A stretch of 64,000 bases of DNA, taken from NCBI RefSeq assembly GCF_028369095.1, contig NZ_JAQNDN010000024.1, positions 281,350 to 345,349 of the forward strand, written 5' to 3'. The notes under the pieces were generated by a model. It saw nothing but the letters and a program-made list of their open reading frames with translations, had not been told where the DNA came from and did no database searches. This DNA comes from Nannocystis radixulma (lineage in GTDB: Bacteria; Myxococcota_A; Polyangia; Nannocystales; Nannocystaceae). Below, in pieces: positions 6,463 to 47,249 of this stretch (within the stretch, counting starts at the first letter, position 1; each line of letters begins with the position of its first letter). Position numbers and translations under genes: made by a program.

Positions 6463-7470
6463 ATGACGACACGCGTGAAGTTTGTCCTGCTGGCGCTGGC
6501 CGCCGGCTGTGTGCCGGAGCTGGCGACGACGACCGACGAGAGCGAGACCGGGGCGACCGCGGCGACGACCGAGGCCGCGACGGACCCGGGCACGACCACG
6601 AGCGACGACGCGCCGACGACGACCGGGTCGACCGGGGAGCCGGCGCAGTGCGAGACGTTCGCCCAGTACCGCATCGACGTGCAGGCCGAGCCCAACGGGC
6701 TCTACTACCGCGCCGACGAGCAGCGGCTGTACATCGCCGACGACGACAACAACCGCGTGCTGGTGCGCGACGAGGACGGGGCGATCGCGGTGTTCGCGGA
6801 GATCCCCAACCCCTCGAACGACCCCGGCTCGGACGGCCTCGGCGACCTCGACTTCGCGGCCGATGGCACGCTGTTCGTGCCGCGCTTCGGGTTCGGCATG
6901 CCGGGGCTCGGGGCGATCTTCCAGGTCGCGCCCGGCGGCGCGCCGGAGGCGATCGCGGGCGTGAACGACGAGTGGCGGCGGGTCGGGCTCGACCACGACG
7001 ACGCGCGCGGGCTGTTGTGGGTGTCCACGTACTCGCGCGACGCCGACGACGTGTACACCGGCTGGATCGCCAGCGTCGACCCGGTCGCGGGCGTCGAGAC
7101 GATGCTCCTCGGGGGGCTCAGCAAGCCTGTCGGCATCGCGGTGCTCGGCGACACGCTGTTCGTCGGCGACCAGGCGCAGCGGCAGCTGTTCAAGGTCGAC
7201 CTCACGGCCGCCATGCCGGCGCTGACGCTGGTGTCGGACGAGTTCGAGTCGCTCGACCTGATGGAGACGACCCCTGACGGGGCGCTGCTGGTGCTGTCGT
7301 ACGACACCGCCAACAGCACCGGCTACGTCTACCGCGTGACCGCCGATGGCGCGATCACGACGGTCGCGCAGGGCGACTGGGAGCCGCGCGGGATCGCGTT
7401 CGACGGCGTCAGCCGGATCTTCGTGTCGGCCCGCGACACCCAGCAGATCGTGGTCATGCCGGCCTGTTGA
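6463..7470 (+). CDS. Hypothetical lipoprotein (beta-propeller-like)
   Basis: Lipobox LALAAGC, a T/E-rich linker, then a D/G-rich repeat-like body typical of a propeller fold. Confidence 0.55.
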   Translation: MTTRVKFVLLALAAGCVPELATTTDESETGATAATTEAATDPGTTTSDDAPTTTGSTGEPAQCETFAQYRIDVQAEPNGLYYRADEQRLYIADDDNNRVLVRDEDGAIAVFAEIPNPSNDPGSDGLGDLDFAADGTLFVPRFGFGMPGLGAIFQVAPGGAPEAIAGVNDEWRRVGLDHDDARGLLWVSTYSRDADDVYTGWIASVDPVAGVETMLLGGLSKPVGIAVLGDTLFVGDQAQRQLFKVDLTAAMPALTLVSDEFESLDLMETTPDGALLVLSYDTANSTGYVYRVTADGAITTVAQGDWEPRGIAFDGVSRIFVSARDTQQIVVMPAC

Positions 7471-7476
7471 GCACCC

Positions 7477-8883
7477 GTGCTGTCGACGACGATCATCATG
7501 GGAGCGGCGCTGGCGACGGCGCCGGCCGAGGAGGTGACCAGCGTGCCGGTGCCCGAGCGCCCGGGACAGAGCGCTGGCCATTCGCCCGGTGCGGCAGGAG
7601 CAGACGAACCTGTCCGAACGGACATTTCGGTGTCAGGGTCGGCGCCGGGCGGCGAGCAGGCTGGAGGTCCGAAGGAGCATGTCCGAACGGACACGTCTCC
7701 TGCAGGGCCGGCAGGGGCCGCTCCGGCCGACCGTGAGAAGACTGTCCCGAAGAGCATGCCCGAACAGCCAGCCGCGAAGAAGCCGCTGCGCGAGCGGTTC
7801 GAGTTCTTCCCGTACGGGTGGATCCGCACCGACGCGACCTGGTACTCGGCGCCGCGCGAGGGCTACAGCAACATCAGCCTGGCGGGGGCGCGGATCGGCG
7901 GCGGGGTGAACGTCGGGCCGGTGACGGCGTTCGTGACGATCGAGGCGGCGCAGGCCAAGGGGCCGCAGCTGTTCGACGCGTTCGTGGCGTGGGCGGCGGC
8001 GCCGCGGCTGCGCCTGCGCGCGGGCCAGTTCAAGGCGCCGTTCGGGCTCCGCTTCAACGCGCCCGACCTGGTCGACGAGCTGCCGCGGGCGCCGCTGTCG
8101 CTGCTGGCGGCCACGCCGGGCCGGCAGGTCGGGCTCGAGGTGGCGTACGACTTCTGGCGCTGGGCCGAGGTGACGGCGGCGGTGTTCTCCGGCATCGGCC
8201 AGAACCGCGAGGCCAACAACACGAAGATCGCGTTCGCCGGCAAGGTCCAGCTCAACCCGCTGGCGGGGCTGCAGCGCGGGCCGAAGCTGATCCTGGTGGC
8301 GTCGGTGTTCGCGTACCACAAGACCAACGGCTTCACGCCGACGGTGACGACCGCGTTCGGGTTCGACTTCTTCCACGGGCTGCCGAGCAGCGGGGCGTCG
8401 CGGCGCTTCACGGCCGGCGGCGGGCTGTTCTGGCGCTTCCTGTCGGCCCGCGGCGAGTTCTTCTACACGTACGACTCGCGCGAGCGCGACACCGACGGCG
8501 ACCCGTTCACGCCCGGCGACCCGCTGCCGCAGTTCGTCGGCGCCGGCGGCTACGCGCAGCTCGGGGCGGTGGTGACGGGGCAGGAGAAGGACCCGGCGAC
8601 GCTGCTGCCGCGGCTGGCGAGCCGACGCGTGCGCGACAGCGCGGTCGAGCTGTCGGCCCGCTTCGAGCGCTTCCGCGTCGGCGCCCGCGACCTGGCCGGC
8701 AACGGCATCACGGCCGCGTCCGCGGGCGTCAACTGGGTGCTCCTGCAGCACCTGCGGGTGTTCGCGGCCGTCAACTGGCAACGGCTCGAGACGGCGGTCC
8801 CGGAAATCCCGCGCGGGACGTCTTGGGGCGTGACCGGCGGGCTCGCCGGCTTCTTCCTCGGCCGCGCCGGCCGCGGCGACTGA
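7477..8883 (+). CDS. Phosphate-selective porin O/P-like outer-membrane protein (5' end uncertain)
   Basis: The body contains AGQFKAPFGLRFNAPDLVDELPRAPLS and alternating beta-strand-like segments. The first roughly 95 codons are encoded by a tripled motif repeat, so the true start may be near 7756. Confidence 0.55.
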   Translation: MLSTTIIMGAALATAPAEEVTSVPVPERPGQSAGHSPGAAGADEPVRTDISVSGSAPGGEQAGGPKEHVRTDTSPAGPAGAAPADREKTVPKSMPEQPAAKKPLRERFEFFPYGWIRTDATWYSAPREGYSNISLAGARIGGGVNVGPVTAFVTIEAAQAKGPQLFDAFVAWAAAPRLRLRAGQFKAPFGLRFNAPDLVDELPRAPLSLLAATPGRQVGLEVAYDFWRWAEVTAAVFSGIGQNREANNTKIAFAGKVQLNPLAGLQRGPKLILVASVFAYHKTNGFTPTVTTAFGFDFFHGLPSSGASRRFTAGGGLFWRFLSARGEFFYTYDSRERDTDGDPFTPGDPLPQFVGAGGYAQLGAVVTGQEKDPATLLPRLASRRVRDSAVELSARFERFRVGARDLAGNGITAASAGVNWVLLQHLRVFAAVNWQRLETAVPEIPRGTSWGVTGGLAGFFLGRAGRGD

Positions 8884-36070: not shown

Positions 36071-36748
36071 TCAGTCGCGATAGTCGATGATCGGCCAGTC
36101 GGCGTCCTTGGCGCTGCGGCGCAGGACGAAGTCGGGGTTGACGGCGCACGGCTTGCCGACGCGCGAGAGCAGCAGCATGTCGGGGCCGTGGGCGCCGTAG
36201 GCGGAGCAGCGGGCGAGCTCGAGCTTGTGCACGGCCGCGTAGTCGTCGAGCCAGCGGCCGCCGACGTTGGAGCCGATGACCGGATCGAGCAGCCTGCCGG
36301 TGGCCTCGTCGTCCTCGAACTCGATGTGGTTGAAGACGAGCTCGTCGTAGTGCTTGAGGTGACGCGCGAGCGGCTTCATGATCGGCTCGATGCTGTCGGA
36401 CAGCAGCACGACCCGCCGCCCCTCCGCCTGCAGCCGCTTGAGCAGCTCGAGGCCCTGATCGAGGATGGTGTCCTTCAGGACATCCTCGGCGTACTCCTCG
36501 CACAGGACCTCGACGCGGTCGCGGCTCATGCCACGGATGGCGAGGTGGGCCAGACGGTGGGCCAGCGCGCGGTCGGTCTGGCCGAGCAGGCGGTGGACCG
36601 GGGCGGCGAGACCGACGAGGCCGAGGCGCAGCGCCCGCTCGCCGAACTTCTTGGCGTTGGCGGCCAGGTAGGCCGCCGCGCTGAGCACGCCGCGGGCGAG
36701 CAGGATGCCTTCGACGCGGACGAATGCTGCCGTGTTGGTTTGTGTCAT
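36071..36748 (-). CDS. HAD-IB family hydrolase (phosphoserine-phosphatase-like)
   Basis: The N-terminus is AAFVRVEGILLARGVLSAAAYLAA rather than a canonical DxD motif, but the HAD-IB cap/core pattern is present (LLSDSIEPIMKPLARHL...GKPCAV). It lies 28 bp upstream of the FAR gene. Confidence 0.55.
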   Translation of the reverse strand: MTQTNTAAFVRVEGILLARGVLSAAAYLAANAKKFGERALRLGLVGLAAPVHRLLGQTDRALAHRLAHLAIRGMSRDRVEVLCEEYAEDVLKDTILDQGLELLKRLQAEGRRVVLLSDSIEPIMKPLARHLKHYDELVFNHIEFEDDEATGRLLDPVIGSNVGGRWLDDYAAVHKLELARCSAYGAHGPDMLLLSRVGKPCAVNPDFVLRRSAKDADWPIIDYRD

Positions 36749-37046
36749 CGACCAGACTCGCGGCCTAGTTAGCGCACCCGAGGCCAGCGTTACAAGCATT
36801 CCCAAGCTGACGGAGATGCCTGCGAAGGCCGCTGCGCACGCCGTTTTACGCGTGCACCGGGGTGCGCAGGATCGGCGGCGACGAGGCCTCGGTGGCCGTT
36901 CGGCGGGCTTTGGCGGCGAGGCTCGCGAAGGCCCGAGATGTTTACTCGCACGAGTAAGTAGTTGCCGCGGACGTTTGACCGTGCGTTTAAGAAATTGCTC
37001 CCCGAATCGCGGTGGTCGGGGCGTCACCGGTGGGTCGCGCGTCGAG

Positions 37047-37694
37047 GTGCGCTATCGTGTGGTCGTGACCCCGCCGCTGCTCGTCTGCGCCGCCGAGGTC
37101 GAGGGCCGCGGGCTGCCCTCGGCGCTGCGCCTCGGCGTCGGCAAGGTGGCCGCGGCGGTGGCCATGACCGCGGCGCTGCACGAGCGCCGGCCGGCGTGGG
37201 TGCTGCTGTTCGGGGTCTGCGGCGCCTATCCCGAGGGACATGGCCCGGGGGGCAGGCTGGACGTCGGCGACGTGTGCCTGGTCGGCGACGAGTGGCTCGC
37301 CGACGAGGGGGTGGCGACCGACGACGGGTTCCTGCCGCTGTCGCAGCTGGGGCTGGGGTCGAACGGGCCGTTTCACGCCGACGCGGAGCGTTCGGCGGCG
37401 GCGGCCCGGGTGCTCGGGGCGCCGATCGTGCGCGGGGCGACGGTCAGCGCGTGCAGCGGGACCGACCCGCGCTCGCGCGAGCTGGCGACCCTGACGGGGG
37501 CGACGGTCGAGACGATGGAGGGCGCGGCGGTGGCGTGGGCGTGCGGGCGCGCGGGCGTGCCGTGGGTCCAGCTGCGCTGCGTCAGCAACCGGACCGGACG
37601 ACGGGCCGCGGGCGGCTGGGATCTGCCGCGCGCGGTGACCGGGGTGCAAGAGGCGTTGCGGCGGCTGGAGGCCGCGAACTGGGGGATGGCTTGA
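37047..37694 (+). CDS. mqnB: Futalosine hydrolase (MqnB), MTA/SAH-nucleosidase fold; GTG start tentative
   Basis: VVVTPPLLVCAAEVEGRGL..., ATVETMEGAAVAWACGRAGVPWVQLRCVSNRTG. It is immediately followed by mqnD. Confidence 0.6.
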   Translation: MRYRVVVTPPLLVCAAEVEGRGLPSALRLGVGKVAAAVAMTAALHERRPAWVLLFGVCGAYPEGHGPGGRLDVGDVCLVGDEWLADEGVATDDGFLPLSQLGLGSNGPFHADAERSAAAARVLGAPIVRGATVSACSGTDPRSRELATLTGATVETMEGAAVAWACGRAGVPWVQLRCVSNRTGRRAAGGWDLPRAVTGVQEALRRLEAANWGMA

Positions 37695-37695
37695 G

Positions 37696-38520
37696 ATGAG
37701 CGCGAGCGAACCACTGCCGATCGGGTTCTCGCCGTGTCCGAACGACACGTGGATGTTCGACGCGCTGGTGCGCGTGCCGGAGTTCGTGCCGGGGCTGCGG
37801 CCGCTGCCGTGGCTGGCCGACATCGAGGCGCTCAACGAGCGCGCGCTGGCCGGCGAGGAGCCGCTGCCGGTGACGAAGCTGAGCGCGCACGGGCTGTTCT
37901 GGGTCGAGCACAACTACATGGTCTTGCGGACAGGTGCGGCGCTGGGCCGCGGCTGCGGGCCGCTGGTGGTCGCGCGCGAGGCGGGCGAGCTCGGCGGGCT
38001 GGCGGGGCGCAAGATCGCCATCCCGGGCGCCTACACGACGGCGCACCTGCTGCTGCGCTGCTTCGCCCCGGCGTCGGCGACGGTGGTGCCGATGCGCTTC
38101 GATCGCATCATGCCGGCGGTCGCTGCCGGCGAGGTCGACGCGGGGCTGGTGATCCACGAGGCGCGGTTCGTGTTCCGCGACCACGGGCTGTTGCAGGTGG
38201 CAGACCTCGGCGAGGTGTGGGAGGCCGCCACGGGCCTGCCGCTGCCGCTCGGGGTGATCGCGGCCCACCGCTCGCTGCCGGCCTGGCAGGTGCGCGCGGT
38301 CGAGGAGGGGATCGCCCGCTCGATCGCGGCGGCGGAGGCCGACCCGGCCGCGGCGTGGCCGTTCGTCAAGGCGCATTCGCAGGAGCTGAGCGACGAGGTG
38401 TGCCGGCAACACATCGCCCTCTACGTCAATCAGTTCTCGCGCGACATGGGGGCCGAGGGCGCGGCGGCGCTGGCCGAGCTGCGCGCGCGCGGGCAGGCGG
38501 CGGGGCTCTTGCCGCGCTGA
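37696..38520 (+). CDS. mqnD: 1,4-dihydroxy-6-naphthoate synthase (MqnD, futalosine pathway)
   Basis: N-terminal PIGFSPCPNDTWMFDALV family hallmark; 274 aa. Confidence 0.8.
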   Translation: MSASEPLPIGFSPCPNDTWMFDALVRVPEFVPGLRPLPWLADIEALNERALAGEEPLPVTKLSAHGLFWVEHNYMVLRTGAALGRGCGPLVVAREAGELGGLAGRKIAIPGAYTTAHLLLRCFAPASATVVPMRFDRIMPAVAAGEVDAGLVIHEARFVFRDHGLLQVADLGEVWEAATGLPLPLGVIAAHRSLPAWQVRAVEEGIARSIAAAEADPAAAWPFVKAHSQELSDEVCRQHIALYVNQFSRDMGAEGAAALAELRARGQAAGLLPR

Positions 38521-38626
38521 GGTGCGGGGGGCGGGGCATCTGCCCTGCGGAGTGGCGGGCGACCGGGTATGTCGCCCGGGACATGTCCGAGAGTGCAGGC
38601 GGCCCGGGGCGGCGGGAGCGCGGGCG

Positions 38627-39289
38627 TCAGCCGCACTCGGGGTCGTAGGCGCAGATGGCGGCGAGCTCCTCGCTGCGGCTGACGCTGAGCTGGTCGTTGC
38701 AGGCGCACACGGGTCGGCAGCAATTGGCGCCGAGGCGGCTGACGATCACGCAGGAGACATCGGTCTGGCAACCCGGGATGTCCGGGCAGTCGGCGGCGGT
38801 CTCGCAGGCCTTGGTGCAGCGGGTGTGCTCGGCGACGTACTCGGGCGCCAGCGCGCAGTGGCCGGAACCGGCGCAGATGAGCTCGGGCTTGCCGCAGTCG
38901 GCGTCGGTCTCGCAGTCGATCAACCGGTAGTCGTCGTAGGTCAGGAGGCACATGCCGGACAGGCACTGCTCGCTCACCGACAGCGCGCTGGCCATCGGCT
39001 GAGCCGCGTCGTCCTCGTCGGGCGGGTCGGCGGTCTCTTCCCACACCTCGGCGACGAGCTCGCACGGCTGGCCGTAGAGCAGCGGGTTCGGGTTGGCGCT
39101 GGATTCGGTGGTGTCACCGGGAGAGTCGGTGGGGCTGGGGTCCGGGGCCACGGTGCCGGCGGAGCTGGTAGCGACGGAGTCGCCGTGGGTGAGCGTCTCG
39201 CCGATGATCTCGGGGGGGAGCACACAGGCGGGGGCGGCGGTGATGAGGGCGAGGGATAGGGCGAGACATGGCGGGCGCGAGGCGGTCAT
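38627..39289 (-). CDS. Cys-rich secreted protein
   Basis: MTASRPPCLALSLALITAAPAC signal and 20+ cysteines in a C-terminal module. Confidence 0.5.
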   Translation of the reverse strand: MTASRPPCLALSLALITAAPACVLPPEIIGETLTHGDSVATSSAGTVAPDPSPTDSPGDTTESSANPNPLLYGQPCELVAEVWEETADPPDEDDAAQPMASALSVSEQCLSGMCLLTYDDYRLIDCETDADCGKPELICAGSGHCALAPEYVAEHTRCTKACETAADCPDIPGCQTDVSCVIVSRLGANCCRPVCACNDQLSVSRSEELAAICAYDPECG

Positions 39290-39349
39290 GACCTGTGAAG
39301 TCCCCGGCACCGGCGAGCGTCGTCGAATTATTTTGCGGCGCGCCGGCGC

Positions 39350-40447
39350 TCACCGGCGGCGGCGGACGAGCAGGAACAAGGCCAGCAGCGGGGGCGGACA
39401 GGCGCCGGCGAGGTTACAGGATGTTCTGATGGACATGTCCTCGGAGACCTGTCCTCCGGTGCCGGATCGATCCTCGCAGTCGACGGCGGGCAGCTCAGGG
39501 CCGGGGATGCGGCAGATGTCGGGCGCGGGGTCGGGGATGGACGGCTCGGCGCTCTCGCCGGGGACCGCGAGGATGTGGACGAGCTCCGGGGCGACGGCGG
39601 TGGCGGTGCGCCCGGACAGGTCGCGGATGTCGACGCGCAGGCGCAGCTCGGTGGCCGCGAGCTCGGGGCGCGGGTCCCAGGGGACGTGCAGGCGATCGCC
39701 GGCGATCGGCAGGTCGGCGGCGATCGGGAACCAGGTGTCGGGGGCGGTGTGCAAGGCGTAGGCGAGGTCGGCGGTGGCGCCCGGCTCGGCGCCGACGCAG
39801 ACCTCGAGGTCGAGGGCCTCGCCTTCGTACACGAAGGTCTCGCGGTTGGCGAACGCGGCGGCGGGGGGCAGCTCGCCGGCGGCGCTGTCGACGATCCGGA
39901 ACAGGCCGCGGCGCGGGGTCCACAGGTTGACGGGCGGGTGGAAGGTGTAGGCCGCGACCGCGTATGTCCCGGGGGACATGTCGTGAAGAGCCCAGAGGAT
40001 GGGCTCGCGCGCGGCCTCGCAGTCGATCGCGCGCGGGGCGGCGATCCGGGTGATGCAGCCCGACCACGCGGGGTTGAAGGCGACGATGTCGGCGGGGACG
40101 ACTGGCGGGAGGAGGACGCCGGTCGCGAGGGCGGCGTGCAGGTCGAGCTCGGACAGCCACTGCGGGAGTGACTCGCCGGGGGCGAGCGCGCGGCAGAGGG
40201 CGAAGAATTGGTGGGTCGGCGCGGCGTGGGGGAGGTCGCAGGTGTCCTCGTACGGGATCGTGTACGCGAGCGCGGCGGTGGGCGTGACGGCGCGATCGAG
40301 GGTGACGAGGCAGGCCTCGTCGAGGTGGACGACGGGGGTGCGCGGGCGGACGGGGTTGCCGGCGCGCGCGCGGACGGCGGGCAGGGCCGTGAACAGGAGG
40401 ACGAGGAGGGCGAGCGGCGGGGAGGCGGCCCGCTCGCGGCGGGGCAT
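39350..40447 (-). CDS. Secreted hypothetical protein with C-terminal Cys-plus-TM-plus-Arg sorting-signal-like tail
   Basis: ATG 40447, signal peptide MPRRERAASPPLALLVLLFTALPAVRA, globular body, and a C-terminus ...SCNLAGACPPPLLALFLLVRRRR*. Confidence 0.55.
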   Translation of the reverse strand: MPRRERAASPPLALLVLLFTALPAVRARAGNPVRPRTPVVHLDEACLVTLDRAVTPTAALAYTIPYEDTCDLPHAAPTHQFFALCRALAPGESLPQWLSELDLHAALATGVLLPPVVPADIVAFNPAWSGCITRIAAPRAIDCEAAREPILWALHDMSPGTYAVAAYTFHPPVNLWTPRRGLFRIVDSAAGELPPAAAFANRETFVYEGEALDLEVCVGAEPGATADLAYALHTAPDTWFPIAADLPIAGDRLHVPWDPRPELAATELRLRVDIRDLSGRTATAVAPELVHILAVPGESAEPSIPDPAPDICRIPGPELPAVDCEDRSGTGGQVSEDMSIRTSCNLAGACPPPLLALFLLVRRRR

Positions 40448-40454
40448 GGTGTTG

Positions 40455-40500
40455 ACGTGTTCTTCAAGACATGTTCGTGTGAGCATGTCTCGAAGAACAC
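40455..40500. other. Long imperfect inverted repeat (GTGTTCTTCAAGACATG ... CATGTCTCGAAGAACAC) between the lysyl-oxidase-like gene and the downstream gene
   Basis: 17-bp arms with one mismatch and a 10-nt loop, built around two ACATG cores. Possible terminator or processing hairpin. Confidence 0.45.
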
Positions 40501-40503
40501 GGG

Positions 40504-42369
40504 TCACAGCGGCATGCACGCGACCTCGACGCCCGGGTCGCTGCGCAGGAGCGGGGCGGTGAACAGGGAGACCTCGCCGCCGGGCTCGTCGGCGGCGAGC
40601 GGGGCGGGGCAGGTGAAGCGGACGGTGGTCATGGCGCTGTCGGCGACGATGCCGGTTCCGAGCGCGTGGACGTACGTGCACGCGAGCGGGACGCCGAGGA
40701 CGGCGCTGACGGGGCACACGCGCACGGCCATCGGCGCGGCGCCGGCGGGGATCGTGCACCCGAGCTCGACGGTCTCGCCGGCGTTGCAGGCGATGGCGGC
40801 GGTCTGCTCGGCGAAGCCGCAGTTGCGCAGCGGACCCTCCTGCTCGCGGTCGCAGGCGGCGGTGACGTAGCTGCCGACGGCGGGGATCTCGACCGGGCGC
40901 TCGCCGACGTTGTTGTCGTCCCAGCCGCTGCTGAACTCGCACATCGGCCGCTCGATGACGGCGCCGGTCTCGGTCCTGAGGTCGGTGGGCTCGTAGCGGA
41001 GGGCGCCGGCGTCGTCGAGCACGGGGGCGCCCTCGCAGAGGAAGCGATCGGGGTTGGAGGTGAAGACCAGCGGGGCGGTGACGGAGGCGCCCGGGATGGC
41101 GACGTCGGTGACGTCGACCCACTGACAGTCGAGGCCGGCGATGTAGTCGTCGCCCCAGCCGGCGGCGATGCCCTGGTAGTCGCAGCTGCCGTAGGGGGTG
41201 TTGAGCGAGCTGTGCTCGTGGTTGCCGGCGCGCGAGGTGGTCTGGAGGCAGAACGACTGCTTGAAGCCCTCGGCGGGCTCGTCGGTGGCGTACATGAAGT
41301 CGCCGTAGAAGCGGAAGTGATAGTGCTGGTGGCAGTCGCTGTACTCGTAGATGTTGTGGGCGGCGAGCTCGCTGGCGACCTCGCCGAGGTGGAGGTCGGC
41401 GCCGCCGACGTTCTGCACGCTGGCGTCGAACTGCAGCAGGCGGCGCCAGCCGGACCCGCCGACGCAGCCCTCGTGCATGGTGCAGCTGTCGGGGGCGATG
41501 TAGCGGTAGACGAGGCGGGCGGAGCTGCCGATGACGTCGCCGACGACGGCGAGGTCGGGCGCGTCGGGGGTGGTGACCTCGCCGAGGCGCACCTCGTCGG
41601 CGCGCTGCGGGTCCCAGGCGCGCCGCTCGAAGCGGACGACGGTGTCGACGGCGCCGACGTGGTCGTGCAGCGCGTCGACGCACGACTCGGTCGGCCGCGG
41701 CTCGCTGAGGTGACAGCCGTAGTCGGGCGCGACCTCGACGTCGCACTCGTGATCGAAGAAGTCGGCGATGTTCTCCTCGTCGGAGGAGTTGGGCGGGAAG
41801 TCCTCCTCGTCGACGCAGGCGTAGCCGGTACGCTGGCGCAGGTAGTCGGGGTCGAGCGGGAGGACGAAGGGCTCCTCCCAGGTGCCGCCGATGTCGACGA
41901 GCGCGGGCTCGGAGGCGGAGATCGAGGCGAGGTCGCTCAGGAGGGTGCCGGTGAGGGTGTAGTCGATGATGACGACGTCGTGGCCGTCGACGCTGTCGCG
42001 GCGCGCGCCGTCGCCGGCGAACTCGTAGTGAAGGCCGGCGTCGGGCGGGAGCGGCAGCTGCAGCTTGTCGTCGTGGAAGAACTGACGGAAGGCGAGGCGG
42101 TAGTTGGTCATGCGGGTCTGCCGGCGCGCGCGGGCCTCCCAGAACGCGAGCGGCTTGGCGAGGAAAAGCTCGGCGGCGCGGTCGCGCGAGCCCGCGGGGA
42201 ACTCGTCGAGGACGACACCGACGCGGCTGGTCATGACGACGTCGATGAGGGCTCCCGGATCGTCGGCGGTGTCGGCGGGCTCGCACGCGAGGACGAGCGC
42301 GGCGAGCGAGACGGTCATGCAGTCGACGAGCAGTGAGCGGGCGTAATTCGGCTCGGTTCGCGCGGACAT
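40504..42369 (-). CDS. Lysyl-oxidase-like copper amine oxidase lipoprotein
   Basis: NIYEYSDCHQHYHFRFYGDF (LOX copper-binding HxHxH) and CDYQGIAAGWGDDYIAGLDCQWVDVTDV, which parallels the LOX lysyl-tyrosylquinone region. The N-terminal lipobox is LAALVLAC. The start may be 42369 or 42318. Confidence 0.65.
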   Translation of the reverse strand: MSARTEPNYARSLLVDCMTVSLAALVLACEPADTADDPGALIDVVMTSRVGVVLDEFPAGSRDRAAELFLAKPLAFWEARARRQTRMTNYRLAFRQFFHDDKLQLPLPPDAGLHYEFAGDGARRDSVDGHDVVIIDYTLTGTLLSDLASISASEPALVDIGGTWEEPFVLPLDPDYLRQRTGYACVDEEDFPPNSSDEENIADFFDHECDVEVAPDYGCHLSEPRPTESCVDALHDHVGAVDTVVRFERRAWDPQRADEVRLGEVTTPDAPDLAVVGDVIGSSARLVYRYIAPDSCTMHEGCVGGSGWRRLLQFDASVQNVGGADLHLGEVASELAAHNIYEYSDCHQHYHFRFYGDFMYATDEPAEGFKQSFCLQTTSRAGNHEHSSLNTPYGSCDYQGIAAGWGDDYIAGLDCQWVDVTDVAIPGASVTAPLVFTSNPDRFLCEGAPVLDDAGALRYEPTDLRTETGAVIERPMCEFSSGWDDNNVGERPVEIPAVGSYVTAACDREQEGPLRNCGFAEQTAAIACNAGETVELGCTIPAGAAPMAVRVCPVSAVLGVPLACTYVHALGTGIVADSAMTTVRFTCPAPLAADEPGGEVSLFTAPLLRSDPGVEVACMPL

Positions 42370-42646
42370 CGGCGGCTCCTTGAGGGCGACAGGAGAAAGT
42401 GACAGCTGTACGAAGAACAATTGCTTGGTTGACTTCGTTCACGCGACTGTCGCCGCGCGAGCCCAGGAGCGGGTCGCGAGGCCTCGTGTGTCGCGGCGAA
42501 CGATGTTGGACGGCGCCGCTTCTTCGCGGCTCGCCGGCCTGTCAGCGCGTGCGAATGGATCGACGTTCGACGCTGTCAGTGTCGCGAACCATGTTCGGCG
42601 CGCGCGGCTTCGTCTTCGCGGCTCGCCGGCGATCGATCGACGTTCG

Positions 42647-43414
42647 CTAGGTGGACGCCTCGAACCACAGGCGGCCGTCTCGCTCGCGGGCGACCACGCC
42701 GAACGCGGCGCCGAGGTGCTCGGGGCTGAAGACGGCGCTGCAGGGGCCGACGCGGGCGCGGCCGGCGGCCAGGAGGACGGCGTCGTCGGCGTGGCGACGG
42801 GCGAGGTCGAGGTCGTGCTCGGCGACGAGGACGGCGACGCCCTCGCCTGCGAGCGCCCGCAGGTGGCGGTAGAGGCCGAGCGCGTGGCCGATGTCGAGGC
42901 CGGCCGCCGGCTCGTCGAGGATGACGACGGCGGCGTCGGCAGCGAGCATGCGCGCGAGCATGACGCGCTGGCGCTCGCCGCCGCTGAGCTGGCCGACCGG
43001 CCTGTCGGCGAACGCGCCGAGGCCGAGCCGCTCGAGGGCGGCGGCGGCCGCGGCGGCGTCGACGTCGCGCGGCGGGCCGAAGCGCGGGAGGTTGGGCAGG
43101 CGGCCGAGGAGGACGACCTCGCGGACCAGCAGGTCGGGCTCAGCCGGGCAGTGCTGCGGCAAATAGGCCAGCCGGCGGGCGCGCGCGGCGGGCGAGAGGG
43201 CGGCGAGCGAGTCGCCGAGCAGTTCGATGCGGCCGGCCTGGGGGCGGTCGAGGCCGGCGAGGGTGCGCAGGAGGGTCGACTTGCCGGCGCCGTTGGGGCC
43301 GGCGACCACGCAGATCCGGCCGCGGCGGAGGTCGAGGTCGAGGCCGTCGTAGAGGACCCGATCGGCGAGCCGGTGCGACAGGCCGCGAGCGGCGAGGGCG
43401 GGCGCGTCGGTCAT
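42647..43414 (-). CDS. ABC transporter ATP-binding protein (FecE/BtuD-like), orphan
   Basis: Walker A GPNGAGKST, signature LSGGERQRV, Walker B ILDEPAAGLD. No permease or binding protein is adjacent. Confidence 0.75.
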   Translation of the reverse strand: MTDAPALAARGLSHRLADRVLYDGLDLDLRRGRICVVAGPNGAGKSTLLRTLAGLDRPQAGRIELLGDSLAALSPAARARRLAYLPQHCPAEPDLLVREVVLLGRLPNLPRFGPPRDVDAAAAAAALERLGLGAFADRPVGQLSGGERQRVMLARMLAADAAVVILDEPAAGLDIGHALGLYRHLRALAGEGVAVLVAEHDLDLARRHADDAVLLAAGRARVGPCSAVFSPEHLGAAFGVVARERDGRLWFEAST

Positions 43415-45583: not shown

Positions 45584-46378
45584 ATGGCTAAGATGCCCCA
45601 ACTTATGACGATGATGCGGAGCACGCGACGCGTTGTGTTGGCGACCCTGGCGACGATGAGCCTGGCATCTTGCGAGTCGCTGTTGAACCCGACGACGAAG
45701 GTTTCGCTGGCCATCTCGCACCACGGTACGCGCGACGCGAACGGAGTTCTGCCGGATCTCGGCGAGCCCGAGGCCGCCCGCGTGTTCGTCAACGACAAGG
45801 GCTGGGAAATCTCGTTGGCCGAGGGCGTGATCGTGATGACCGCGGCGCAGATCGAGTCGTGCGCCGGCGAGAGCTTCGACTTCGAGCTGCCCTACGGTCC
45901 GTTCCCCGAGTACCAGCTGGCGCAGGACCAGGACCTCGTCGACTTCGCCATGGTCGACCTGCCCGAAGGGTCATATTGCAAGCTGCGCGTCGAGTACGGC
46001 CGCTACCAGTCGTCGCTGGCCGAGCAGGCGTTCGACACGCCGTACGCGGTCCAGGGCCACGCGCCGATCGAGGGGCTCACGGTCTACCTCGCCGGCACGG
46101 CGCGAGACCTGGCGAACGGGAGCGAGGGCGCCAACTTCGGCTTCGAGACCAATCAGACGGCGATCGTCGAGCTCGACCTGAGCACCTCGGTGGAGGGCCG
46201 CCCGCTCGTGATCACCGGCAAGGAGCCTGGCGGCAAGGCGCTGACGGTCGCCAAGACCTACGACGCGTTCTTCCGCGGCCTCGACTTCGCCAACTACGAC
46301 AAGGCGGCGCTCGAGGCCGGGCTGCTCGAGGTGCTCAAGGCCGAGACGTACGTCGTCGTCGGGCCCCAGGTCTTCTGA
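45584..46378 (+). CDS. Hypothetical lipoprotein
   Basis: LATLATMSLASC lipobox and balanced composition. Confidence 0.5.
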   Translation: MAKMPQLMTMMRSTRRVVLATLATMSLASCESLLNPTTKVSLAISHHGTRDANGVLPDLGEPEAARVFVNDKGWEISLAEGVIVMTAAQIESCAGESFDFELPYGPFPEYQLAQDQDLVDFAMVDLPEGSYCKLRVEYGRYQSSLAEQAFDTPYAVQGHAPIEGLTVYLAGTARDLANGSEGANFGFETNQTAIVELDLSTSVEGRPLVITGKEPGGKALTVAKTYDAFFRGLDFANYDKAALEAGLLEVLKAETYVVVGPQVF

Positions 46379-47249
46379 GACCGGCCAGCGCGAGCAACAC
46401 GGCGAGCCCGAGCGGGCCGCCGTCGTCGCCGCTGCGGCAGTTGCAGCCTTCGTCCGACTTGGGCGAGATGTCGAGGCAGTCGCAGGCCTCGCACGCGTCG
46501 GTGCGCAGGTCGACGCCTGTCTCTTGGTTCAGCCAGCACAGCGCGGCGTAAGGGATGGCGTAGAAGCCGCCCTTGCCGCAGGTGTAGCCGCGCGAGACGA
46601 CGCCCGCGAGCACGACCTCACCGGAGGCGAGCGTGGCGAACGCGGGGCCGCCGGAGTCGCCCTGGCACGAGTCGAAGCCCATGCCGCCGGCCTGGAACTC
46701 GAGGCCGGTGGTGCTGAAGCGGACGATCTCGACGTCGACCTGGCGCTTGAAGCCCTTGAGCATCTTCTCGTCGTCGCCGAAGCCGACCAAGGTGAGCGGC
46801 GCGCCGACGTACATCGCTTCGTTCCACTCGGCCTGGCTGGTAATCGGCAGGGTCGGCTCGACGCTGGTGATCGGCCGCTCGAGCACGACGTAGCCGTAGT
46901 CCCAGATGTCGACCTTGCACACCTCGGTGTCCGTGCCGCAGAAGTCGGGGTGCGAGCCGTGCTCGACGACCCCGACGACCTCGTCGAACTGAGAGAACAC
47001 GTCGTCGCCGATCACGACTTGCATGAGCGCCGGCGACGGGTTGCTGTCGAGGCAGTGCGCGGCGGTGAGGACGACGGTGTCGCTGACGAGGGTGCCGGTG
47101 CACAGCACGTCGCCCATGAGGATCGCCACGGCGCTCGGCCACGAGCCCGGCTCGACGAGGTCGCCGCCGTAGATCGGACTGGGCGCGGGCGCAGGCGCGG
47201 TCCACGGGAGCGGCGAGGCGAGGATGGCGACGAGGCCGAACTGCAACAT
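46335..47249 (-). CDS. Trypsin-like serine protease (S1) with MYXO-CTERM-like tail
   Basis: TAAHC (His), GDSGGP (Ser), and a C-terminus EGCNCRSGDDGGPLGLAVLLALAGLRRPGARRRR. Confidence 0.75.
   Translation of the reverse strand: MLQFGLVAILASPLPWTAPAPAPSPIYGGDLVEPGSWPSAVAILMGDVLCTGTLVSDTVVLTAAHCLDSNPSPALMQVVIGDDVFSQFDEVVGVVEHGSHPDFCGTDTEVCKVDIWDYGYVVLERPITSVEPTLPITSQAEWNEAMYVGAPLTLVGFGDDEKMLKGFKRQVDVEIVRFSTTGLEFQAGGMGFDSCQGDSGGPAFATLASGEVVLAGVVSRGYTCGKGGFYAIPYAALCWLNQETGVDLRTDACEACDCLDISPKSDEGCNCRSGDDGGPLGLAVLLALAGLRRPGARRRRTSRP

Follow-up and report, generated by a model that had tools for sequence, protein, structure and literature searches.

Lysyl oxidases (LOX) are best known from animals. 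Bacterial members of the family have been known since 2015 (PMC4448552), and homologues from myxobacteria have already been published (PMC4448552, PMC6508830, PMC6452851); those of Sorangium, Stigmatella and Plesiocystis were listed explicitly together with their conserved Lys, Tyr and His residues (PMC6508830). Our literature searches returned no characterised bacterial LOX, only an archaeal one. This enzyme, HTU-LOX, was shown to be an active amine oxidase sensitive to β-aminopropionitrile (PMC6452851), and the native role of the prokaryotic LOX has been described as enigmatic or cryptic (PMC6452851, PMC4448552). Here we describe a LOX-family gene of the myxobacterium Nannocystis radixulma, located at 40504-42369 on the minus strand of a 64,000-nucleotide stretch of contig NZ_JAQNDN010000024.1 (positions 281,350 to 345,349; hereafter the window) and encoding 621 amino acids (aa) followed by a stop codon. 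The bacterial LOX family to which it belongs is already known and annotated, though functionally uncharacterised, and within it the gene is ordinary. The sole fresh lead that it offers is the recurrent pairing of LOX genes with a gene for a cell-surface protein.

A sequence-only reading of this DNA had called the product a lipoprotein homologue of copper LOX, carrying a LOX-type copper site and a DCQWVDVTDV block in its C-terminal half. The homology was borne out by both searches. PF01186 matched aa 307-425 (68.2 bits, E=1e-18; the gathering score is 20.4), and phmmer against all PDB chains returned human LOXL2 (5ZE3) as its sole match (E=2e-15). A search with a family profile recovered 5ZE3 as well, with the same residue alignment. 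The copper-site segment CHQHYHFRFYGDF lies at aa 346-358 (nt 41296-41334) and the DCQWVDVTDV block at aa 414-423 (nt 41101-41130), that is, in the half of the protein to which they had been assigned. The GC content at third codon positions (GC3) of the gene is 0.96, similar to that of real genes elsewhere in the window. With the PF01186 match, the LOXL2 match and this codon usage, the observation is far beyond chance.

We then compared the active-site residues with those of LOXL2, numbered as the 5ZE3 chain index plus 317. We take H626, H628 and H630 of LOXL2 to be its copper ligands, and K653 and Y689 to be the pair that forms the lysine tyrosylquinone (LTQ) cofactor. This assignment accords with the published descriptions (PMC6452851, PMC6508830). 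In the window protein the three histidines of the copper site CHQHYH (H347, H349 and H351; nt 41317-41334, minus strand) align with these ligands. K370 (codon 41260-41262, minus strand) aligns with K653 and Y409 (codon 41143-41145, minus strand) with Y689; these are the predicted LTQ lysine and tyrosine. The sequence-only reading had named the lack of a significant PF01186 match, or of the copper histidines and the LTQ Lys and Tyr, as grounds for its refutation, and all of these features are present. In an alignment of 31 diverse homologues (A1), on which conservation was scored, C346, H347, H351 and Y409 were invariant, and H349 and K370 were at least 90% conserved. The CHxHxH motif was almost universal among the best 120 homologues, and KxxFC was present in 118 of them. 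Judged by its sequence, the protein is a true LOX-family homologue with all predicted catalytic residues intact. The animal catalytic domain reportedly has five disulfides, as described for the LOXL2 structure. Cys296, 302, 346, 374 and 415 of the window protein align with C573, 579, 625, 657 and 695 of LOXL2, and C396 falls near C673.

The AlphaFold2 model of the protein (pLDDT 89.6, pTM 0.88) has the LOX fold in the catalytic domain, which spans about aa 286-500 (nt 40870-41514, minus strand; boundaries approximate). Judging from the order of its strands in the model, the domain may have an insertion ahead of the WDxNN segment relative to LOXL2. Identity to LOXL2 is 27%. The window protein has no SRCR domains; in their place it has a lipoprotein-type signal, an N-terminal domain of ~250 aa that is particular to its family, and a C-terminal domain rich in cysteines. 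The published myxobacterial LOX come from the same phylum and share the conserved Lys, Tyr and His residues as well as the Cys-rich C-terminal domain (PMC6508830, PMC6452851), and Minicystis and Polyangiaceae have full-length relatives under the name 'lysyl oxidase family protein'. HTU-LOX, compared by its description (PMC6452851), likewise has PF01186, an N-terminal hydrophobic signal and the conserved His, Lys and Tyr; it differs in being archaeal and in having a short autoinhibitory N-terminal stretch, whereas the window protein has a folded 250-aa domain in addition to the C-terminal domain.

The N-terminal domain (aa 35-285; nt 41515-42267, minus strand) has no Pfam model and no significant neighbour among solved structures. 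Used as a lone query against 1.84 billion representatives, it matched 284 clusters at 50% identity. Among the listed matches of at least 560 aa (n=50), the domain lies within the first ~430 residues in 49, and the strict CHxHxH motif is present in 42. One match from the representative library (P0261, 1260 aa) joins the same N-terminal domain to a LOX-type region with the variant copper motif AHGHCH; its LOX-type region is preceded by ~600 aa of repeated, Lys-richer sequence that looks non-myxobacterial. The architecture may exist fused to other modules too, possibly in a eukaryote. The C-terminal domain, predicted to be rich in β-strands, covers about aa 501-621 (nt 40507-40869, minus strand), and all of its eight cysteines are invariant in A1.

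The protein begins with a signal peptide and lipobox, MSARTEPNYARSLLVDCMTVSLAALVLAC (nt 42283-42369, minus strand), in which Cys29 is predicted to be lipidated from a PROSITE-like pattern and from conservation in homologues. The segment TVSLAALVLAC, which ends at Cys29, fits a lipobox rule of the PS51257 type. The Cys29 column is common to most homologues aligned in A1, and a lipobox is present in 73 of the 120 best homologues. The model gives this segment a pLDDT of less than 50, as would be expected of a signal peptide or a linker. The LOX protein is thus probably lipid-anchored through Cys29, and the designation as a lipoprotein proposed earlier remains plausible.

At least 547 homologues were found at E<=0.001, and the best 120 all contain PF01186 and cover 92-100% of the query. 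Among the matches listed, Minicystis, Polyangiaceae, Binatia, Promineifilaceae and Chloroflexota contribute entries under the name 'lysyl oxidase family protein', and the full architecture is also found in metagenome-assembled genomes (MAGs) labelled Chloroflexota and Binatia. A scan of contigs with the LOX protein as single query added distant LOX-domain loci (L001-L007). For cultured genomes at large, the statement that LOX are rare in bacteria stands (PMC6452851). For environmental bacteria it is overstated, given these counts and the 284 N-terminal-domain clusters.

The protein encoded next to the LOX gene has its best matches in Nannocystis sp. SCPEA4 (L013) and N. pusilla (L014), and both are 97-99% identical to the window in DNA over most of ~17 kb. 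All three share one gene order: an ATP-binding cassette (ABC) ATPase, the LOX gene, its partner gene, a Cys-rich gene, and convergent mqnA-like and PNP_UDP_1 genes. The LOX orthologues are 95% (SCPEA4) and 93% (N. pusilla) identical to the window protein, and both carry PF01186. Against N. pusilla, the segment with the LOX, partner and Cys-rich genes (38619-42573) has 92% DNA identity and both flanks have 97-98%; these envelope genes have therefore diverged faster than their housekeeping neighbours.

The partner gene (39350-40447, minus strand; 365 aa) starts 56 nt past the LOX stop codon. Its product is laid out as a signal peptide, a folded core with a β-sandwich like those of immunoglobulin (Ig) and fibronectin type III domains, a disordered linker and a terminal helix (modelled at aa 354-364). 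The C-terminal tail SCNLAGACPPPLLALFLLVRRRR (nt 39353-39421, minus strand) resembles a sorting signal and reads directly as three parts: a Cys motif (SCNLAGAC), a transmembrane helix (PPPLLALFLLV) and RRRR. This layout is kept across the alignment of partner homologues (A2). The sequence-only reading had given this neighbour a sortase-like tail, which holds by analogy only. No LPXTG-type motif was found in the last 26 residues (RTSCNLAGACPPPLLALFLLVRRRR) or in the aligned tail, and the layout is of the MYXO-CTERM type, in which a Cys motif, a transmembrane helix and an Arg-rich end are processed by a myxosortase and not by sortase (PMC11980579). In MYXO-CTERM proteins sorted by MrtX, such as TraA, the tail likewise consists of a Cys motif, a transmembrane helix and an Arg cluster (PMC11980579); the partner differs from them in that its own tail stays below the threshold of the hidden Markov models. 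Partner homologues do reach the cut-offs at the same position (P0138 from N. exedens, TIGR03901, 25.9 bits against 20; P0130, TIGR03382, 19.1 bits against 15.85), and some of them are named MYXO-CTERM proteins. The partner thus probably carries a MYXO-CTERM-type surface anchor.

The residues just past the predicted signal cleavage site of the partner are unusually conserved family-wide (AGNxxHPRTPV; AGNPVRPRTPV in the window). Lysine depletion was also considered as a sign of self-protection (0.5-0.6% Lys in LOX, 0% in the partner) and was rejected as unremarkable, since the Lys content is 1.0% or lower for 11 of the window's 39 genes.

The partner family was found beside LOX genes in four settings, comprising three gene arrangements and two LOX architectures. 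The LOX gene is followed by the partner in tandem in the Nannocystis clade, and again in L009 and L010, at 66% LOX identity and 44% partner identity. L016 and L017 have two partner paralogues, one of them 1.6 kb from the LOX gene, and in L018 the partner is divergent and 50 bp from the LOX gene. The LOX proteins of L016 and L018 have PF01186 at the C-terminus behind unrelated N-terminal regions, and only the catalytic domain is common with the window protein (39-43% identity). The locus L019 was left out of the count, as its contig ends at the partner gene. Pairing in 4 of 6 informative contexts is far above what is expected by chance, an expectation that is an estimate and not a computed statistic; the judgement follows from LOX genes being few per genome. 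No mention of the pairing was found in the papers searched. On the L016 contig, which comes from a MAG, the partner paralogues lie at 1816-2775 and 7043-7861, within 10 kb of the LOX gene of the C-terminal type, and a gene for a PEMT/ICMT-like methyltransferase separates them.

The aforementioned data make it likely that the window gene encodes the Nannocystis version of a LOX-family copper/LTQ amine oxidase, and that this enzyme works with the adjacent Ig-like protein. Once exported by Sec and lipidated, it would reside in the cell envelope and, from established LOX chemistry, would bind Cu(II). The LTQ cofactor would form autocatalytically from Y409 and K370, by analogy with LOX chemistry and HTU-LOX (PMC6452851). 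Oxidation of primary amines would then yield aldehydes, NH3 and H2O2, as expected of LOX in general. The likeliest substrates would be lysine ε-amino groups on proteins of the envelope or surface, or further exposed amines, and the aldehydes could condense into covalent cross-links. The gene context suggests that LOX may act in this jointly with the Ig-like protein. Cross-linking of surface proteins by the window LOX is possible. That the family also occurs in MAGs labelled Chloroflexota and Binatia weakens the specific tie to myxobacterial multicellularity suggested by the sequence-only reading.

Several observations weigh against this reading. The PF01186 match spans only profile positions 50-163 of 204, and the C663-C685 disulfide of LOXL2 has no counterpart in the alignment of the LOX protein. 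The Leu at position -2 of the lipobox obeys the PROSITE rule and departs from the strict E. coli consensus. Neither the window partner nor its isolated tail matched TIGR03901 or TIGR03382, even at E<=10. The partner has no Lys in its 365 aa and A2 has no conserved Lys column; it is therefore not an obvious lysine substrate or donor, and a role as scaffold, tether or recipient is likelier. LOX homologues with 53-54% identity, in a Minicystis MAG (L011) and in L012, have no partner, and two partner homologues (L015, L020) have no LOX gene within 7-10 kb. Finally, the only characterised prokaryotic LOX has a relaxed specificity and a cryptic native role (PMC6452851).

The chief rival is that the protein is an active LOX-type amine oxidase of broad specificity in the envelope, with a role other than protein cross-linking; we consider this unlikely on balance while taking it seriously. 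Many small amines are substrates of HTU-LOX, as are aminoglycosides and polymyxin, and it has no known native function (PMC6452851). Most LOX homologues with 53-54% identity have no partner and no shared gene context (one neighbours an aminotransferase gene), and they favour this explanation, as do the partner's want of lysine and the same architecture in Chloroflexota and Binatia MAGs. Nannocystis is a predatory myxobacterium. Possible uses would be nitrogen scavenging from free amines, inactivation of amine antibiotics, or production of H2O2 and aldehydes against prey. However, the LOX operon contains no amine transporter, aldehyde dehydrogenase or catabolic genes, and the repeated adjacency of the partner family to LOX genes of two architectures favours a partnership at the level of surface proteins over free-amine metabolism.

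That the protein merely retains the LOX fold, being catalytically inactive and having a structural or binding role in the envelope, is very improbable. The missing animal disulfide would fit such a loss, as would the loss of 7 aa that, compared with the 93-95% identical orthologues, lies ~13 residues before the copper motif. However, the deleted loop is variable and is missing from several homologues and from LOXL2, and no copper histidine or LTQ residue is lacking, all five being conserved throughout the family. The familiarity of LOX from animals raises the question of a foreign gene, present as animal or other eukaryotic contamination or acquired from a eukaryote only very recently. Horizontal transfer has indeed been proposed for the patchy distribution of LOX (PMC4448552). 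However, this origin is barely conceivable here, since the GC3 is like that of the neighbouring genes, the syntenic context recurs in at least three Nannocystis-like genomes, and hundreds of bacterial relatives have the full architecture while LOXL2 reaches just 27% identity. The explanations by inactivity and by contamination are effectively excluded.

The open reading frame (ORF) of the LOX gene, as listed mechanically, reaches farther upstream, to a TTG at 42420. An AAGGAG Shine-Dalgarno site, read directly from the sequence (nt 42376-42381, minus strand), lies 6 nt upstream of the ATG at 42369, and this ATG is therefore the better start; the stop codon is at 40504-40506. The LOX gene calls in the two Nannocystis genomes, 628 aa each, fit this start given the 7-aa deletion. 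The latter is a 21-nt in-frame deletion, seen against each of the two Nannocystis orthologues, that falls at 41377-41378, between codons 331 and 332, and removed about 'DYYGEG(V/L)' from the loop. A short GTCGAC direct repeat flanks the deleted stretch in SCPEA4. As expected at a GC content of ~72%, the LOX gene is overlapped by very long spurious ORFs, one in another minus-strand frame (39350-42442, 1030 aa) and one on the plus strand (40666-42336, 556 aa). The former contains the partner gene as its in-frame 3' end, so that the start of the partner is easily misplaced.

An intercistronic hairpin with 21-nt arms (40456-40501, minus strand) fills nearly the whole of the 56-nt gap between the LOX and partner genes; it begins 2 nt past the LOX stop codon, and 8 nt separate it from the partner ATG. 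Its inverted repeat is 90% complementary, and the RNA fold has a free energy of -33.2 kcal/mol (z=-6.9). The hairpin is AT-rich for this genome and is not followed by a T-run. It is kept in SCPEA4, degraded in N. pusilla, and absent from L008 and L010; its arm motif is not a repeated element within the window. It may stabilise the transcript or modulate translation. Scans for sigma-70 promoters and terminators and an Rfam search of 38-44 kb returned nothing relevant.

Downstream of the partner, a third gene (38627-39310, minus strand) encodes a small exported Cys-rich protein of 227 aa from a GTG start, or 220 aa from the ATG at 39289. It has no Pfam match and is conserved only in the close Nannocystis relatives SCPEA4, N. 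pusilla and L008, and it may lack a functional tie to the LOX-partner pair. No NCBIfam model matched the LOX protein, the partner or this third protein. Upstream of the LOX gene, an ABC-transporter ATPase gene (42647-43414, minus strand; PF00005, E=1.2e-32) is found at the same position in L008, SCPEA4 and N. pusilla and not in L009, L011 and L012. Farther upstream, a serine protease of the trypsin family (46335-47249, minus strand; PF00089, E=3e-24) has a bona fide MYXO-CTERM tail (TIGR03901, 28.8 bits against 20), so that, with the partner, two proteins encoded less than 5 kb from the LOX gene are predicted to be sorted to the surface. On the other side, adjacent PNP_UDP_1 and VitK2_biosynth (MqnA-like) matches at 36705-38520 on the plus strand are convergent with the LOX operon. 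We take the PNP_UDP_1 gene to be futalosine hydrolase-like, and the two genes mark the futalosine route to menaquinone.

The locus does not add a new kind of enzyme. Through the recurrent pairing it makes the function of bacterial LOX somewhat more testable, in a group that includes cultured species (Nannocystis). The origin of the animal enzyme for matrix cross-linking is tied to the bacterial relatives of LOX. A more specific proposal, which we regard as quite unlikely, is that the LOX lipoprotein and its Ig-like, MYXO-CTERM-type partner form a dedicated two-component module that installs covalent cross-links derived from aldehydes in the myxobacterial cell surface or extracellular matrix, with the partner as the scaffold or acceptor that gives specificity. 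If true, the module would be a bacterial counterpart of animal matrix cross-linking, and the pairing with two unrelated LOX architectures would reflect selection for the interaction between enzyme and partner. If the pair does not cross-link surface material, the gene would be one more annotated 'lysyl oxidase family protein'; if it does, this would be the first physiological function for a bacterial LOX.

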